Shown piece by piece: positions 39,176 to 60,981 of a stretch of 64,000 nt of DNA. Position numbers and translations under genes: made by a program. Positions within the stretch are counted from its first letter, which is position 1. Each line of letters starts with the position of its first letter. Origin of the DNA: Escherichia phage vB_EcoM-S1P5QW; sequence record OL956808.1. One strand, given 5' to 3'. Below the pieces are notes generated by a model. That model did no database searches and was not told the DNA's origin. It worked only from the letters and a program-made list of their open reading frames with translations.

Positions 39176-39888
39176 ATGAAACTAATCTTTTTAAGTGGTG
39201 TAAAGCGTAGCGGAAAAGATACTACTGCAGATTTTATCATGAATAATTATTCTGCAGTTAAATATCAACTTGCTGGTCCTATTAAGGATGCATTGGCTTA
39301 TGCATGGGGTGTATTTGCAGCAAACACTGACTATCCTTGCTTAACTCGTAAAGAGTTTGAAGGAATTGACTATGATCGTGAGACTAATTTAAATCTGACT
39401 AAATTAGAAGTAATTACGATTATGGAACAAGCATTTTGCTATCTTAATAGTAAAAGCCCAATTAAAGGTGTGTTTGTTTTTGATGACGCAGTTAATTTCG
39501 TAGCATTTAATAAGATTGCTGACGTTATAAATAATATTGAAGATCAATGGTCAGTCCGTCGTCTGATGCAAGCCCTAGGTACGGATTTGATTGTTAATAA
39601 CTTCGACCGCATGTATTGGGTAAAATTATTTGCTTTAGATTATCTTGATAAATTTAACTCAGGTTATGATTATTATATCGTTCCTGATACTCGTCAAGAT
39701 CATGAAATGGATGCGGCTAGGGCGATGGGTGCTACAGTAATTCATGTAGTTCGTCCTGGTCAAAAATCCAATGATACTCATATTACAGAAGCTGGATTGC
39801 CAATTCGTGATGGCGATTTAGTAATTACAAACGATGGTTCTCTTGAAGAACTTTTTTCTAAAATTAAAAATACACTAAAGGTACTATA

Positions 39889-39889: not shown

Positions 39890-40586
<697 letters not shown>

Positions 40587-40598
40587 TTTCACAAAGTT

Positions 40599-40629
40599 GT
40601 TTACACAGGGTTTTAGTAGTGATACTATT
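40599..40629 (+). promoter_or_regulatory. early promoter upstream of ipI
   Basis: -35 GTTTAC, about 17-nt spacer, -10 tgaTACTAT; short inverted repeat agggt/accct around -10. Confidence 0.55.
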
Positions 40630-40662
40630 ACCCTATCAAAACAAAACCAAATGGAAATCAAA

Positions 40663-40896
40663 ATGAAAACTTTCAAAGAGTTTATCGCTGAATCTTCTGA
40701 TGTAAAAGTTGAGTTTATTTACACCGGCAAGAAAGATAAAATGGGTGAAATGCCTCATGGAGTTCTTCGTGATGCATTAGATAATTTCGGTCAACTCGCC
40801 GCAGAAGATTACGGTGATAAAATTGTTGTTACTGGTCCTGCTGCAGTTATTGAAAAATGGGCAGCAGAAAATAAATCAATTTTTCGTAAAAAATAA
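40663..40896 (+). CDS. ipI: internal protein I-like, N-terminal capsid targeting sequence
   Basis: Track ORF starts at TTG inside the promoter; ATG at 40663 gives MKTFKEFIAE-SSDV..., matching the T4 IP capsid targeting sequence and gp21 cleavage context; adjacent to 57B as T4 ipI; start could be the ATG at 40651. Confidence 0.7.
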   Translation: MKTFKEFIAESSDVKVEFIYTGKKDKMGEMPHGVLRDALDNFGQLAAEDYGDKIVVTGPAAVIEKWAAENKSIFRKK

Positions 40897-40927
40897 GTTT
40901 ACTTTTAGATAGGGTAGTGATACTATT
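40897..40927 (+). promoter_or_regulatory. early promoter with stem-loop
   Basis: GTTTAC then inverted repeat atagggta/taccctat enclosing -10 gtgaTACTAT; near-duplicate of the element at 40611-40637. Confidence 0.55.
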
Positions 40928-40954
40928 ACCCTATCAACTACCGAGGAGAATAAA

Positions 40955-41140
40955 ATGAAACGTTGTGAATTAATTCGAAATGTTGCTATTGCAATTTCTG
41001 CTTCTGCTTTTAGTTTTTCAATGTTTGTTGGATTTATATGCGGATTATTGACTACAGCAGAAAATGTTTTTTCACTTGTAGCAGCATTTTTAATTGGTTT
41101 AATTGCTATCGTTATGGATAAAATTTCTAAAGGTGAATAG
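40955..41140 (+). CDS. small membrane protein (2 predicted TM helices)
   Basis: 61 aa hydrophobic ORF; gaggag RBS; downstream of early promoter 40897. Confidence 0.55.
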   Translation: MKRCELIRNVAIAISASAFSFSMFVGFICGLLTTAENVFSLVAAFLIGLIAIVMDKISKGE

Positions 41141-42078: not shown

Positions 42079-42152
<74 letters not shown>

Positions 42153-42198
42153 ATTTATGTCTCGTCGTGAGACGCTCAGTTCTTTATTAGGGACTGAT

Positions 42199-42807
42199 AT
42201 GCATTTTTATCTTTATAAAATAACAAATAAAATTAATAATAAAATTTATATTGGTGTGCATTCTACCGAAAATTTAGATGATGGATATATGGGTTCTGGT
42301 AAATTATTAAAAAGAGCCCAAGATAAATATGGTATAGAAAATTTTTCTAAAGAAATATTAGAGTATTTTGATGATAAAGAATCTATGCTTGAAGCCGAGA
42401 AAAATATTGTCACAGAAGAGTTTTTAAATAGACCAGATGTGTATAATTTAAAACTTGGAGGTGAAGGTGGATGGGATCATATAAATAATTATCCTATGAC
42501 AGATCAGCAACGCGAATTAATTTCATTGGGTGTTAAAAAGGCACATTCTAACGGAAAATTAAAAGGATGGTCTTCAAATGGATTAATGAAAAATGGCTTT
42601 GCTGGTAAAACTCATTCTCAAGAAGCTAAACGTAAAATAGCAAAAGCAAACGAAGCAAAAGTTTCTGCGAATGAAAGAAAAAGAAGAATAGAAATTTCTA
42701 AATTATATGATTTTTCTAAGCGGGGTGAATTATCTAAATATGCTAAGCATATTGGCGTAAGTCATACTCAAGCAAAAAGAATTCTAAATCAAATTAACAA
42801 TATATAA
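42199..42807 (+). CDS. segB: GIY-YIG homing endonuclease, SegB-like
   Basis: GIY-YIG signature FYLYKITNKINNKIYIGVH...YMGSG; track ORF (42157) begins just after tRNA-Gly, ATG at 42199 has an RBS; inside the tRNA cluster as T4 segB. Confidence 0.75.
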   Translation: MHFYLYKITNKINNKIYIGVHSTENLDDGYMGSGKLLKRAQDKYGIENFSKEILEYFDDKESMLEAEKNIVTEEFLNRPDVYNLKLGGEGGWDHINNYPMTDQQRELISLGVKKAHSNGKLKGWSSNGLMKNGFAGKTHSQEAKRKIAKANEAKVSANERKRRIEISKLYDFSKRGELSKYAKHIGVSHTQAKRILNQINNI

Positions 42808-42813
42808 ATATTT

Positions 42814-42903
42814 GGAGGCGTGGCAGAGTGGTTTAATGCACCGGTCTTGAAAACCGGCAGTCGCTCCGGCGACTCATAGGTTCAAATCCTATCGCCTCCG
42901 CCA
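42814..42903 (+). tRNA. tRNA-Ser (anticodon UGA), type II
   Basis: Acceptor ggaggcg/cgcctcc, anticodon loop ctTGAaa, long variable arm, encoded CCA. Confidence 0.85.
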
Positions 42904-43505: not shown

Positions 43506-43850
43506 AACAAGAAGCCGGGTCGCTACCGGTAAGTCGTCGGACTGATGTTCCCTGGGTAAGGACTGGCATTAACAAATCTTTACGATCGGTTAATGCCCCC
43601 TTACATCACAGCAGAAACGGCGCACCGAATTATCGATTCGAGGAAATATCTTTGCCGTAAGCCGAGTAGCGTTTTTGACGGAACGTTCGGATATGGTCGA
43701 GATATGGCCTTTTAAAATATTAAGTAGCGTCAACTGCTTAATAACCGGGTTCGAATCCCGGCGTTTCGTACAAACACTTGCCTTAGCAGGTGGAACCCCG
43801 ACAAGGTTGCCGCAAGGCTTAGCCCCGACCGAAAGGTTGGGGCTTTTTAG
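43506..43850 (+). ncRNA. stable small RNA region (T4 RNA C/D-like) ending at an intrinsic terminator
   Basis: 345 nt without a credible ORF right after tRNA-Arg; tRNA-like T-arm ccgggttcgaatcccgg at 43745-43763; ends with hairpin plus T-run 43822-43850; T4 has two stable RNAs here (recalled). Confidence 0.4.
43822..43850 (+). terminator. intrinsic terminator (copy 1)
   Basis: agccccgaccgaaaggttggggc + TTTTT; near-identical copy at 44377. Confidence 0.7.
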
Positions 43851-43894
43851 TATAAATAAGTATATTAAAACCACGAATTAAAACAGGAAATAAG

Positions 43895-44368
43895 ATGAAA
43901 TCATATGCTCAATTTTTAAATGAAGCGGTGTTAAATGAAGCATCTAGCACCGAAATTCAAGCCGTTGCAAAAGCTGCCATTGCCGCGGGTAAATATTCCT
44001 ATAAAGATGCTTCTGATGAGTCACGATTCCAATTTGCTCGCGATATGAAAGCGGAAGGATTTACAGGGAATGCAGTTAGTATGGCCTGGAAAAGTCTAGT
44101 TGCTACTGGAGCTGCTTTTGCAAAGGCTTCGGGTAAACCTGCTCCTAAAGCAGATCCTAAAGTCACACAAGAGAAAAATATTGTTAAAGGAATTATCTCC
44201 AAATATGAAGCTATCCTTAAAGAGCTTTTAGTAATCAAAACTGAAGGCCAAAAACTGGCTCGTGCTTATAGTTTCAAAGATAACCCACATGCTCACTCTC
44301 TTGAGTATGTTGAAGACATCCAAAAAATTATTAAAGACCGCATTTGGTCTGCTAAACAAATCAAATAA
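43895..44368 (+). CDS. candidate packaged internal protein with CTS-like N-terminus
   Basis: 157 aa; N-terminus MKSYAQFLNE-A resembles T4 CTS MKTYQEFIAE; Ala/Lys-rich; flanked by near-identical terminators. Confidence 0.55.
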   Translation: MKSYAQFLNEAVLNEASSTEIQAVAKAAIAAGKYSYKDASDESRFQFARDMKAEGFTGNAVSMAWKSLVATGAAFAKASGKPAPKADPKVTQEKNIVKGIISKYEAILKELLVIKTEGQKLARAYSFKDNPHAHSLEYVEDIQKIIKDRIWSAKQIK

Positions 44369-44873: not shown

Positions 44874-44883
44874 GTTTACATAG

Positions 44884-44913
44884 GCTCATGATTGAGATAT
44901 TATGAGCCTATAA
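44884..44913 (+). promoter_or_regulatory. early promoter with stem-loop
   Basis: GTTTAC; 10-bp inverted repeat ataggctcat/atgagcctat brackets the -10 gaTATTAT. Confidence 0.55.
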
Positions 44914-44929
44914 CTTTGAGGAGAACATA

Positions 44930-45328
44930 ATGAATATTAAAGATAAAGAAATGCGAGAGTTATATAATTCATTAACACCCGAACAACAAAAATCTGTTAA
45001 AGAATTAGAGAAAGCTCTTAGTTTAAGCTTGACAAAAACTGATTGGGTCGCCGTGTATGAAGAAAAAATGAGATCGGAAAATGAAGCTGTCGAGAGAAAT
45101 GAATGGATTGTAGACACCAAGATTGGTGATGATGGATGTTCTGTTGAGGTGTCAGCTGTAGTTAAAGGTACTCATGGCGAAGAATCATGGGGTTGGCATA
45201 ATGAGGCAAACAAATATATTGTTCTCTCAACGTCAAAAACTTATGGTCAAAAGGTTCCTGTATCCAAAGCTATTATTAAGCAAGCTCAATGGGAAGCCAA
45301 TGAAATCTGCCTCGCAAAAATGAAATAA
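44930..45328 (+). CDS. hypothetical protein
   Basis: 132 aa; gaggag RBS; own early promoter. Confidence 0.55.
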   Translation: MNIKDKEMRELYNSLTPEQQKSVKELEKALSLSLTKTDWVAVYEEKMRSENEAVERNEWIVDTKIGDDGCSVEVSAVVKGTHGEESWGWHNEANKYIVLSTSKTYGQKVPVSKAIIKQAQWEANEICLAKMK

Positions 45329-45331
45329 CAT

Positions 45332-45361
45332 GTTTACAAACTCTCGGGAGTAGAGTATAAT
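45332..45361 (+). promoter_or_regulatory. early promoter with stem-loop
   Basis: GTTTAC, -10 gagTATAAT; inverted repeat gggagta/tactccc around -10. Confidence 0.6.
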
Positions 45362-45405
45362 ACTCCCACGGATTATAAAACCCTTAATTAACTAAAGGAA
45401 ATGCT

Positions 45406-48910: not shown

Positions 48911-49384
48911 ATGAAAACATATCAAGAATTTATTACTGAAGCAGCTATTAATTCTCAAATTATTGCTGAATCTTTTACTGATCTTTTGAAATTTAAAAAA
49001 GGACAGAAAATCACTGCTGTACTGGATGATGGTACAGAAGTTGAGATGGATGTACAGGGATATAATTATGCAGTAGATGGAAAACTGTATAATAAATCTC
49101 ATGCTAAATTTGATTCATTTGACGACTTTGTTAATACAGTTGAAGATGAAAAAACTCGTCGATCCATTGCAACAGGTGATGCTAAGGTTCTTATGGCACA
49201 TGGTCATGAACGTATTCGCGCTAAACAGAATAAAATGGGTGAAGATAATTTTGCATTAGTTGGTTATCAATCTGGTAAACAAACTTATGGCTATCAACGT
49301 ACTGCTACCATGTATAACAAAAATGGTAAAATTGCCTTTGTGAATAGTAAAGGTTCTATTCAGTACGTTAAATCGTTCAAATAA
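48911..49384 (+). CDS. internal protein (IPIII-like) with capsid targeting sequence
   Basis: 157 aa; N-terminus MKTYQEFITE-AA matches T4 CTS; adjacent to e as T4 ipIII; aagga RBS. Confidence 0.6.
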   Translation: MKTYQEFITEAAINSQIIAESFTDLLKFKKGQKITAVLDDGTEVEMDVQGYNYAVDGKLYNKSHAKFDSFDDFVNTVEDEKTRRSIATGDAKVLMAHGHERIRAKQNKMGEDNFALVGYQSGKQTYGYQRTATMYNKNGKIAFVNSKGSIQYVKSFK

Positions 49385-51530: not shown

Positions 51531-51539
51531 CTGTTTACT

Positions 51540-51569
51540 TTTCCTCTTGACTGTGGTATAATTTTTCTA
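51540..51569 (+). promoter_or_regulatory. early promoter upstream of regB
   Basis: GTTTAC, 18-nt spacer, -10 tggTATAAT; imperfect inverted repeat cctcttgactg/cagttaagagg. Confidence 0.6.
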
Positions 51570-51589
51570 TCAGTTAAGAGGAGAATAAC

Positions 51590-52051
51590 ATGACTATCAA
51601 TACAGAAGTTTTTATCCGTCGAAATAAGCTTCGTCGTCACTTTGAGTCGGAGTTTCGTCAAATTAACAATGAGATTCGTGAGGCATCAAAAGCAGCAGGG
51701 GTCTCATCGTTTCATCTAAAATATTCTCAGCATCTTCTTGATCGTGCAATTCAACGGGAGATTGATGAGACATATGTTTTTGAATTATTCCATAAAATAA
51801 AAGACCATGTTTTAGAAGTTAATGAATTCCTGAGTATGCCTCCGCGTCCTGACATTGACGAGGATTTTATTGATGGGGTTGAATATCGTCCTGGACGTTT
51901 AGAAATCACAGATGGAAATCTTTGGCTTGGATTTACGGTTTGTAAGCCTAATGAGAAGTTCAAAAACCCGTCACTTCAATGCAGGATGGCAATTATCAAC
52001 AATCGTCGTTTACCAGGAAAGGCTTCTAAAGCAGTAATTAAAACTCAATGA
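51590..52051 (+). CDS. regB: RegB site-specific endoribonuclease
   Basis: 153 aa; MTINTEVFIRRNKLRRHFESEFRQ... matches recalled T4 RegB; own early promoter and gaggag RBS. Confidence 0.85.
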   Translation: MTINTEVFIRRNKLRRHFESEFRQINNEIREASKAAGVSSFHLKYSQHLLDRAIQREIDETYVFELFHKIKDHVLEVNEFLSMPPRPDIDEDFIDGVEYRPGRLEITDGNLWLGFTVCKPNEKFKNPSLQCRMAIINNRRLPGKASKAVIKTQ

Positions 52052-59484: not shown

Positions 59485-59517
59485 GTTTACAAGCATAAAG
59501 CTTTATGGTACTATACA
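59485..59517 (+). promoter_or_regulatory. early promoter with stem-loop
   Basis: GTTTAC; inverted repeat cataaag/ctttatg in spacer; -10 tggTACTATacaactatcaact. Confidence 0.55.
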
Positions 59518-59548
59518 ACTATCAACTGATACGGATTTGGAGAATAAA

Positions 59549-60517
59549 ATGAAAACTGTAACTATCAATAAGGGTATCTACTTCGGTAAAGAAATCTCTG
59601 GAACTTTTGAGCTCTTAGGCGAATGGTTCCCAGATAATGCTCCGGTGGATGCACAAGGAGATGGTAAAGTTTTTGTTGAAATTGACGGTAAGCGTCGCGG
59701 TGTTTGGGTTTACAAATCAGACATTTCATATGATGGTGTAAAAGTTGAAGAAGTTAAAGAATCATATGAAGATATGAAAACCCGCATTAATAAAAGATTT
59801 AATGTTATGGGAATGATGACGAATGGTATTATTAACGGAAACATTCGTTCATTAATTATCTCTGGTGCGGCGGGTATTGGTAAAACGTATTCTTTAGATA
59901 AAGCTTTAAATAAAGCAAATGATATTGGATACATTGAATATAAAAGCATTAACGGTAAAATCTCCGGTATCGGTCTTTATGAACAACTTTGGAATAATCG
60001 TGAAGAGAATTCTGTCCTTTTGATTGATGATGTGGATGTTTTCTCTGATATGGACATTCTTAATCTTCTAAAAGCTGCTCTGGACACTGGAGAGACCCGT
60101 AAAGTCTGCTGGAGCACTGCATCTTCTTACTTAGAAGAAAAAGGCATTGAGCGTGAGTTTGAATTTAAAGGAACGATTGTTTTTATCACAAACGTTGACA
60201 TTGACCGCGAATTAGACCGTGGTACTAAACTTGCTCCACATTTACAAGCATTAGTGTCCCGCTCAGTTTATTTGGATTTGGGTGTTCACACTAATGAAGA
60301 AATTATGGTCAGGGTTGAAGATGTTATTCTTTCAACTGACATGATGCAAAAGCGCGGTCTTTCTGATGAAGAAACTTATAAAGCATTATCATGGATGAAA
60401 GTCAATGTTAATCGTTTACGCAATGTTTCACTGCGTACTGCTCTTTATCTTGCTGACTTTATTATGACCGACAAAAACGGTTGGGAAGAAATTGCTGAGG
60501 TTACTCTTCTGAAATAA
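59549..60517 (+). CDS. P-loop ATPase (AAA-like)
   Basis: Track ORF starts at TTG inside promoter; ATG at 59549 with ggaga RBS gives 322 aa; Walker A GAAGIGKT, Walker B VLLIDDVD. Confidence 0.6.
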   Translation: MKTVTINKGIYFGKEISGTFELLGEWFPDNAPVDAQGDGKVFVEIDGKRRGVWVYKSDISYDGVKVEEVKESYEDMKTRINKRFNVMGMMTNGIINGNIRSLIISGAAGIGKTYSLDKALNKANDIGYIEYKSINGKISGIGLYEQLWNNREENSVLLIDDVDVFSDMDILNLLKAALDTGETRKVCWSTASSYLEEKGIEREFEFKGTIVFITNVDIDRELDRGTKLAPHLQALVSRSVYLDLGVHTNEEIMVRVEDVILSTDMMQKRGLSDEETYKALSWMKVNVNRLRNVSLRTALYLADFIMTDKNGWEEIAEVTLLK

Positions 60518-60618
60518 TTCATAAGAGGACTTCTATGACAAAAAGGCAGTTCAGAAATAGATTATATGGACTGCCATTAAAAAGATGACTAGAATTAAAC
60601 TGGTGAATGGAGGTAGTG

Positions 60619-60921
60619 ATGTTATACTCAAAGGCTCGTGAAATTTATGAAACTAAAATTAAAGACGCGGTTCATCAGTTCGCAACGACAATGCGTTGGA
60701 CAAATGATTGGGAGTATTCAAAAAATCATAAGAAGCCCTTGGTGACAAGAAAGGCTCATATGTTAGTGTTAATAGACCGTGAGCAGATTAAAGCCCGAGA
60801 AGCCCTCCAGAATCATAAAAAGGCTGCTTTTGAATGGTTTATGGATAACACTGCTCCTGAGACTAAGAAAGCAGTGAGCGCTTGGTTCAGTGGAAAAAAT
60901 TGTGAAAGAAGTTTCTTTTAG
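60619..60921 (+). CDS. hypothetical protein
   Basis: ATG at 60619 with ggaggtag RBS (100 aa); upstream ATG at 60607 is an alternative. Confidence 0.45.
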   Translation: MLYSKAREIYETKIKDAVHQFATTMRWTNDWEYSKNHKKPLVTRKAHMLVLIDREQIKAREALQNHKKAAFEWFMDNTAPETKKAVSAWFSGKNCERSFF

Positions 60922-60923
60922 TT

Positions 60924-60955
60924 GTTTACAAGACCGTTCCTCTGTGGTACTATAC
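60924..60955 (+). promoter_or_regulatory. early promoter with stem-loop
   Basis: GTTTAC; inverted repeat gttcctc/gaggaac brackets -10 tggTACTATacaactatcaact. Confidence 0.55.
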
Positions 60956-60981
60956 AACTATCAACTACGGAGGAACACAAA

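Follow-up and report, generated by a model that had tools for sequence, protein, structure and literature searches.

Known internal protein loci and promoter/stem-loop elements

The closest described counterparts of the locus analysed here are the variable internal protein (IP) loci of the T-even phages. According to the account given in Arbiol 2010 (PMC2839356), Repoila et al. 1994 (EMBO J 13:4181) found PeSL-like sequences at two variable IP loci, and the relevant passage of Comeau 2014 (PMC4122927) repeats this statement and extends PeSLs to the T4/PST pair. [quoted passage not shown] In RB49 and phi1, PeSLs act as promoters and terminators, and the recombination of flanking copies gives rise to mini-circles (Arbiol 2010, PMC2839356). 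With regard to the proteins, each of the T4 proteins Ip1, Ip2 and Ip3 inhibits a type IV restriction enzyme of the GmrSD type, a different one in each case, with no cross-protection and no sequence similarity beyond the leader.

The stretch of DNA analysed here, referred to as the window, comprises 64 kb of OL956808.1 (Escherichia phage vB_EcoM-S1P5QW), a Tequatrovirus (T4-like) genome. As far as the 1994 work is represented in Arbiol 2010, Comeau 2014 and a 2025 Nat Commun paper, its T-even elements occupy the same locus as in the window, from 57B to the tRNA region, are of the same type, a T4 early promoter with an AT-rich stem-loop, and accompany the same polymorphic, leader-bearing ip genes, among which ip5 and ip6 are named in GenBank records. 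On that account there is no substantive difference between the two, and the window represents one allelic state, with ip6 alone. The swappable, element-bounded IP slot is already known, through the 1994 description and its PeSL-like reinterpretation in 2010 and 2014.

The comparison with the PeSLs of the RB49/phi1, PST/T4 and nt-1/KVP40 pairs (PMC2839356, PMC4122927) reveals a similar composite layout, and the placing of the hairpin in the window elements agrees with the Fig. 2 legend of PMC2839356. Both kinds of element lie next to small ORFs that vary between phages, within hyperplastic regions, and have indel junctions inside them, and for both, excision and insertion have been proposed to occur via recombination of the flanking copies. 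Nevertheless, the IP-locus elements were called analogues, not homologues, of PeSLs by Arbiol 2010 (PMC2839356). Where PeSLs carry a sigma-70 TTGACA, the IP-locus elements carry the GTTTAC of T4 early promoters, and they have weaker, AT-rich stems without the polyG/polyC of PeSLs. Moreover, mini-circles and terminator activity have been demonstrated only for the PeSLs of RB49/phi1.

A more distant analogy, drawn by Arbiol 2010 (PMC2839356), is that with integron gene cassettes, which are also small single-gene cassettes with repeated, hairpin-capable boundaries, arranged in arrays at one locus, and for which circular intermediates have been proposed, likewise for PeSL cassettes. In contrast to integrons, each IP cassette brings its own promoter, and its exchange is presumed to proceed by general homologous recombination. 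To our knowledge, no integrase or dedicated recombinase has been described for IP cassettes.

We read the region as the first IP hyperplastic locus of Tequatrovirus, holding a single ip6 cassette that is bounded by promoter/hairpin elements and exchanged by recombination, and we give this reading a probability of about 85%.

Genomic context of the cassette

Between 38.5 and 43.5 kb, the gene order of the window is gp3, gp1 (dNMP kinase), 57A, 57B, a 77-codon ORF, trna.4, trna.3, trna.2 and the tRNA cluster, and the order from gp3 to the tRNAs is identical in T4, GiZh and vB_Eco_T-01. All features of the cassette region lie on the plus strand. The conserved left flank is gene 57B (40131-40586), syntenic with T4 57B and encoding an Acb1 anti-CBASS phosphodiesterase (Pfam PF23474 Acb1, 2.6e-60). 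It is followed by the PeSL-like upstream promoter/hairpin element (40587-40662), with a promoter, the first copy of a repeat and the ip6 5'UTR, and by ip6 itself (40663-40896), which encodes the 77-aa precursor of an internal (injected) head protein. The downstream promoter/hairpin element (40897-40954) contains a promoter, the second copy of the repeat, and the SD and ATG of trna.4. The latter gene (40955-41140), syntenic with T4 trna.4, encodes a predicted membrane protein of 61 aa (phrog_1692, 2.3e-34) and forms the conserved right flank.

The stretch of 1395 nt from 57B to trna.3 matches 762 phage records, the best being vB_Eco_T-01 with 98.1% identity. In this phage, both intergenic elements and the ip6 ORF are 100% identical to those of the window; the exact cassette is already in GenBank.

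The tRNA cluster to the right shows differences of its own. A GIY-YIG homing-endonuclease ORF (42157-42807, plus strand; phrog_314, 2.8e-55) lies between tRNA-Gly (42079-42152) and tRNA-Ser (42814-42903), in the place held by tRNA-Pro in T-01, GiZh and T4, and the window is devoid of any tRNA-Pro. An endonuclease gene thus seems to have been inserted here in place of a tRNA gene; T4 segB is found elsewhere in the tRNA cluster, between tRNA-Ile and tRNA-Arg. Just downstream of tRNA-Arg, ARAGORN reports a 94-nt 'tRNA-Lys(ttt)' at 43678-43771 (plus strand), at the place of rnaC/rnaD in GiZh and T4, and this is probably a stable tRNA-like RNA (rnaC/rnaD), not a tRNA-Lys.

The ip6 product and its relation to T4 IPI

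The product of the ORF at 40663-40896 begins with MKTFKEFIAESS. As the first-pass annotation had noted, translation gives MKTFKEFIAE-SS, that is, a capsid-targeting leader (CTS) followed by a gp21 cleavage context. The leader MKTFKEFIAE occupies codons 1-10 (40663-40692) and fits the T4 internal-protein pattern MK(T/S)(F/Y)x(E/D)(F/L)..., its first 7 residues being the same as in T4 IPI and GiZh Ip5. The IAE at residues 8-10 is the sole (L/I)xE motif in the whole protein, and a single gp21 cut is predicted after E10, leaving a mature Ip6 of 67 aa, 7.4 kDa and pI 6.5. An in-frame ATG further upstream, at 40651 (MEIK-), has been chosen as the start in some annotations. The late promoter TATAAATA is absent directly upstream of ip6, the nearest on the plus strand being at 39526, inside gene 1.

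Among the PHROGs, the product matches phrog_8111, 'internal virion protein', over residues 1-77 of 77 (3.3e-51), and the remaining matches are limited to the first 15-28 residues, which correspond to the leader. It is 100% identical to the GiZh gene product annotated ipVI, and has 73-95% identity to the products of genes annotated ip6 in fFiEco06, VR7 and VR25. Taken together, the leader, the cleavage motif and the position mark it in sequence comparison as an internal protein, and the family as Ip6. tblastn finds ip6 in 246 phage records, one per record, and a large protein database holds 11 clusters at 90% identity, all of them from T4-like coliphage-type sources; judged by these searches, the Ip6 family is narrow. 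Its leaders vary: that of the window is MKTFKEFIAESS, whereas ECML-134 and the majority of the family have MKTYQEFIAEAA or MKTYQEFIAETA.

The ORF had been described in the first-pass annotation as ipI-like, and its placing was sound, since the slot between 57B and trna.4 is that of ipI in T4, one of the two IP loci. The identity of the slot, together with the first seven residues (MKTFKEF) shared with T4 IPI, is what speaks for a diverged ipI orthologue that inhibits GmrSD in the way of T4 IPI*. The likeness ends there, as the BLASTP alignment to T4 IPI covers residues 1-14 only. The lack of an alignment beyond the CTS had been set beforehand as the result that would tell against the comparison with ipI, and the product aligns no further than this leader. 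As a control, T4 IPI scores 7.3e-54 on the Pfam family PF11634 IPI_T4 over its mature part, a family that Ip6 does not match; indeed, the Pfam search of Ip6 returned no family at E<=1. Likewise, the IPI* structure 2jub is found by sequence with T4 IPI as the query and not with Ip6, for which the PDB sequence search gave a chance match alone (E=1.2).

Structure prediction points in the same direction. The AlphaFold model of Ip6, built on a shallow alignment of 8 sequences (pLDDT 80.9, pTM 0.65), has a disordered leader and a beta-alpha-beta-beta-alpha-beta body. The BFVD structure search gives the Ip6 of VR7 as the top match (TM 0.88), and the model resembles ferredoxin-like domains in general, without a structural match that would be informative. 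Each structure search with the Ip6 model listed 50-60 matches, none of them 2jub, and the fold predicted for Ip6 is different from that of IPI*. Thus, T4 IPI/IPI* (PF11634, PDB 2jub), an injected GmrSD inhibitor, resembles Ip6 in its leader, gp21 context, small size, slot and presumed anti-defence role, but its mature part has neither sequence nor detectable fold similarity to Ip6. On these comparisons, the gene between 57B and trna.4 is ip6, not ipI, and belongs to a family separate from IPI. Since there is no match to IPI past the leader, the idea of an ipI orthologue is refuted as a claim of homology, GmrSD inhibition cannot be transferred from IPI on that ground, and the orthologue reading as a whole appears extremely improbable.

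Two further genes of the window have starts of the same kind. A second clear internal-protein gene at 48911-49384 (plus strand), whose product starts MKTYQEFITE|AA and matches phrog_3155 'internal virion protein' and Pfam DUF7412, presumably lies in the second IP locus. The 157-aa ORF at 43895-44368 (plus strand; phrog_2280, of unknown function, with no Pfam match) starts MKSYAQFLNE|A, a leader-like start with an LNE cleavage context, and is preceded by the late-promoter-like TATAAATA at 43851 and then an SD. Its start and upstream sequence suggest that this ORF, which follows closely after the tRNA cluster and lies outside the 57B-trna.4 slot, may encode an internal (packaged) protein that has so far gone unrecognised.

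Repeated early promoters on both sides of ip6

A 22-nt segment repeated on either side of the ORF had been reported in the first-pass annotation, and both copies are real, although they were misplaced by 2 and 4 nt and cut short by 2 nt. The 22-mer AGTGATACTATTACCCTATCAA is present at 40618-40639 and 40916-40937, in exactly two copies in the 64-kb window, and the full exact repeat is the 24-nt GTAGTGATACTATTACCCTATCAA, at 40616-40639 and 40914-40937. There is no third copy of the 22-mer in the window with up to 3 mismatches, and 0 are expected in shuffles; however, shuffled sequence is the wrong null for the length of this repeat, as other early promoters here also have long exact runs in common.

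The two copies do lie within GTTTAC early promoters, as had been proposed, and both fall in GTTTAC-N18-TACTAT sites. The upstream site has its -35 GTTTAC at 40599-40604, a spacer of 18 nt and its -10 TACTAT at 40623-40628, whereas in the downstream site the -35 GTTTAC (40897-40902) directly adjoins the ip6 stop codon and the -10 TACTAT is at 40921-40926. The upstream element also contains the UP-like TTTCACAAAGTT, and a general promoter scan calls the upstream site too, as TTTACA-17-TACTAT with a TG ahead of the -10. Shifted by one base, the two sites read TTTACA-N17-TACTAT (upstream) and TTTACT-N17-TACTAT (downstream), which fit TTTACW-N17-TAYWAT, the published promoter consensus for T4/PST-type PeSLs (PMC4122927).

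One alternative is that the two copies are no more than adjacent representatives of the T4 early-promoter family, without a special role in mobility, and that the turnover of cassettes takes place mainly via homology in the 21-30 nt of leader-coding sequence common to all ip genes and/or via co-conversion next to the homing endonuclease of the neighbouring tRNA cluster. In its favour, the early-promoter-like sites at 59485 and 60924 have a 22-nt exact run in common, TGGTACTATACAACTATCAACT, and the sites at 40599 and 59485 share one of 19 nt. Runs of 19-22 nt at other early promoters make long exact runs a property of the promoter family, not of the ip locus alone, and part of the 24-nt repeat is therefore plain promoter consensus. 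In view of the 22-nt run joining the sites at 59485 and 60924, the idea of a 24-nt repeat without parallel was rejected. These last two sites (59485-59540 and 60924-60980, plus strand), 1.4 kb apart, bracket ORFs at 59547-60517 and 60607-60921.

Hairpins over the -10

The inverted repeat ATAGGGTA/TACCCTAT had been assigned to both promoters. It is perfect in the downstream copy only, where it extends to GATAGGGTA (40908-40916) and TACCCTATC (40927-40935), a perfect 9-bp inverted repeat. In the upstream copy, where the left arm is ACAGGGTT, perfect pairing is confined to AGGGT (40607-40611) and ACCCT (40630-40634). Through the core, the downstream stem reaches 12 bp, G-U included, with a 4-nt loop. 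The core GTAGTGATACTATTAC, which is conserved in IP-locus elements, is itself an imperfect palindrome, and both elements, including the imperfect upstream one, can therefore fold as stable RNA hairpins, with predicted energies of -17.5 kcal/mol (z -3.35) upstream and -17.4 kcal/mol (z -3.27) downstream. The downstream hairpin is followed by GAGGAG, the SD of trna.4, and then by the ATG of this gene.

The presence of the -10 inside a hairpin is a general trait of the early-promoter-like sites of the window, as in 6 of 11 such sites the -10 is spanned by an inverted repeat that is perfect over 6 nt or more, where 1.35 would be expected, and only 0.05% of shuffles reach 6. An alignment of nine IP-locus elements sharing one register, which represent essentially two element lineages, allows the pairing to be followed across the elements. 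All pair cells (108 of 108) are standard pairs with G-U allowed, and at two pairs both partners differ when the ATAGGG/CCCTAT type is set against the GATGAGG/CCTCATC type (TGATGAGG/CCTCATCA). The one-sided changes yield G-U in 3 cases out of 3, and G-U also occupies two inner positions of the stem in all of the elements. As G-U pairs would be mismatches in a DNA cruciform, this tolerance favours an RNA hairpin, which, with few independent changes to draw upon, is suggestive.

These observations bear on the possibility that the hairpin has been selected mainly for a role at the RNA level, namely the ending, attenuation or stabilisation of the upstream transcript and the insulation of cassettes, with recombination as a by-product. 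The G-U pairing across all 108 cells, the enrichment of hairpins over the -10 at early promoters across the window, and the fact that the stem-loops of RB49 PeSLs are effective terminators/attenuators (PMC2839356) are all in line with such a role. Conversely, an intrinsic-terminator scan made no call at either ip6-flanking element, there is no T-run, and hence no U-tract, after the stem, and the nine-element sample offers few independent changes. We regard the chances of this possibility as evenly balanced, and it is compatible with the recombination of cassettes, not exclusive of it. It is improbable that GTAGTGATACTATTAC, present in every IP-locus element, and its covarying arms go beyond a passive patch of homology and constitute a structure-specific recombination site, formed as ssDNA or a cruciform and cut by, for instance, endonuclease VII or bound by a helper; if this were true, the T-even IP locus would be an integron-like system of targeted cassette capture.

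Sequestration of the SD by the ip6-flanking hairpins was considered and is ruled out, given that the right arm stops about 5 nt short of the SD. Elsewhere in the window, at 51533-51590 and 60924-60980 (plus strand), a hairpin pairs the promoter spacer with the downstream SD region (TCCTCTT/AAGAGGA and GTTCCTC/GAGGAAC, respectively). At these two sites, the pairing would hide the SD in read-through RNA and leave it free in RNA initiated at the promoter, a layout resembling the control described for T4 e, 49 and I-TevI.

Cassette contents and junctions among relatives

The comparison of the 57B-trna.4 interval covered nine annotated relatives together with 36 loci from IMG/VR. Among the phages with flanks 96-99% identical to those of the window, slur11 has nothing in the slot. 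ip6 is found alone in the window, T-01 and one IMG/VR locus (L041), ipI alone in T4 and slur03, and ip5 alone in PP01. Other single occupants are an unrelated Ip of 90 aa in sutha and one of 102 aa in L040, while pairs of genes are seen in GiZh and L010 (ip5 and ip6) and in ECML-134 (ipI and ip6). Relatives that carry differing cassettes are 96.7-99% identical in 57A-57B DNA. Even where the 57B protein is 100% identical to that of the window, as in three phages from IMG/VR, the contents are ip5 and ip6, the 102-aa Ip, and ip6 alone, respectively. In the T4-like group at large, trna.4 begins 79 to 1663 nt downstream of 57B, with 0-5 Ip-type ORFs in between; these ORFs fall into considerably more than twelve families with no relation to each other. 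L025 has the largest array, in which 3 of the 5 ORFs pass a strict CTS pattern and the remaining two have variant N-termini. One ipI, at 906-1142 of L007 (phage BYEP02), has an internal tandem duplication of 77 nt (GGTTGATGGCGAAGAAATCAAAGGTACTGTTTACC... twice) that shifts the frame and cuts the product to 78 aa, so that it is a pseudogene or an assembly error.

The proposal of a hypervariable, swappable locus bounded by repeats is borne out, in that the contents differ between near-identical flanks and the junctions lie in the promoter/hairpin elements. Repeats at every early promoter, together with an absence of variability at the locus, had been named as the other result that would tell against it; the locus is clearly variable. 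Several findings on the junctions stand against the alternative of mere neighbouring promoters. Every Tequatrovirus cassette boundary examined has a promoter/hairpin element; T4 has the same two elements around ipI, and the downstream element of the window recurs 3' of ip6 in GiZh and ECML-134 and 3' of a different Ip in sutha and L040. The empty site of slur11 retains one element, TTTCACAAAGTTGTTTACATAGGGTTTTAGTAGTGATACTATTACCCTATCAACTACTGAGGAGAATAAAATG, composed of the left half of the upstream and the right half of the downstream element of the window and 2 nt off the exact crossover product; such a single, chimeric element is what a crossover between the two copies of the 24-nt repeat would be expected to leave. 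Furthermore, the last codons and stop of 57B, GATTTAAAATAA, are part of the junction sequence repeated in relatives. In GiZh and PP01, GATTTAAAATAATTTCACAAAGTTGTTTAC is found at the ends of both 57B and ip5, and this duplication of the 57B end together with the element indicates that past exchanges took in the left edge of the element. The boundary elements, the chimeric slur11 element and the duplicated 57B end together place crossovers in the elements.

The leader-coding sequence appears to have been a further site of exchange. The first 21 nt of ip6 in the window are the same as the first 21 nt of ip5 in GiZh, and the occurrence of Ip6 with two different leaders implies crossovers within the leader-coding sequence as well, as the promoter-family explanation would have it. 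The locus is also as variable in more distant T4-like phages as in Tequatrovirus, even though, of their 55 ORFs with a leader, 23 directly adjoin or overlap the gene before them without a promoter element and only 22 are preceded by one. The elements are thus not required for variability, and the promoter/hairpin boundary is, as far as these genomes indicate, the Tequatrovirus way of packaging cassettes. As for co-conversion, homing endonucleases have been given as a parallel route (PMC4122927), and a GIY-YIG gene is present 1.3 kb downstream of the cassette (42157-42807); nevertheless, the cassette is identical in T-01, the closest relative, whose tRNA cluster lacks an endonuclease gene. Overall, the explanation by promoter kinship with exchange in leaders or through an endonuclease seems rather unlikely as the main account, and cassette exchange through the boundary elements is preferred.

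Another part of the window has a comparable arrangement. Promoter/hairpin elements at 44874-44930 and 45332-45405 (plus strand), with unrelated stems of 10 bp (ATAGGCTCAT/ATGAGCCTAT) and 7 bp (GGGAGTA/TACTCCC), lie on either side of an ORF of 132 aa (44930-45328; phrog_8232, of unknown function), which is a candidate for another PeSL-bounded cassette.

A model for expression and exchange of the ip6 cassette

In the preferred reading, the 10-residue leader would take Ip6 into the prohead core, as its sequence and established T4 biology suggest. The prohead protease gp21 would then cut off the leader after Glu10, and the 67-residue mature Ip6 would be injected with the DNA. The literature searched assigns no target to Ip6. 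By analogy with the three characterised T4 Ips, the mature protein would most likely act as an injected disarmer of a host defence, and it may be an inhibitor of a further GmrSD/BrxU-type enzyme or of another defence system.

Sequence and comparison show the cassette to have, at either end, a T-even early-promoter element with the -10 within a hairpin, the IP-locus analogue of a PeSL. Each element would serve as the promoter of the downstream gene and, in read-through RNA, place a hairpin at the end of the upstream gene. Judging from the spacing, RNA initiated at the promoter itself would have its 5' end at the right arm or immediately 3' of it. With the left arm missing from such RNA, the hairpin would form in read-through RNA only.

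With regard to exchange, stretches of 24-70 nt are nearly identical between the two elements, and likewise between them and those that flank other Ip cassettes. As the junctions suggest, these elements and the common 21-30 nt of leader-coding sequence would provide patches of homology for the homologous recombination of the phage, leading to the deletion, insertion and replacement of cassettes, both within a genome and between co-infecting relatives, with the expression of the neighbouring genes left undisturbed. We infer promoter activity, termination and recombination at the T-even IP-locus elements from their sequence and from RB49/phi1.

Biological implications

The window represents one state of a known polymorphic locus and brings no new principle. 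In T-even phages, the IP loci are a changeable store of injected anti-restriction proteins, and the cassette carried therefore helps to decide which wild E. coli strains can be infected. The content of the IP cassettes thus bears on the prediction of host range and on phage therapy. Ip6 itself is present in about a third of the sequenced relatives.
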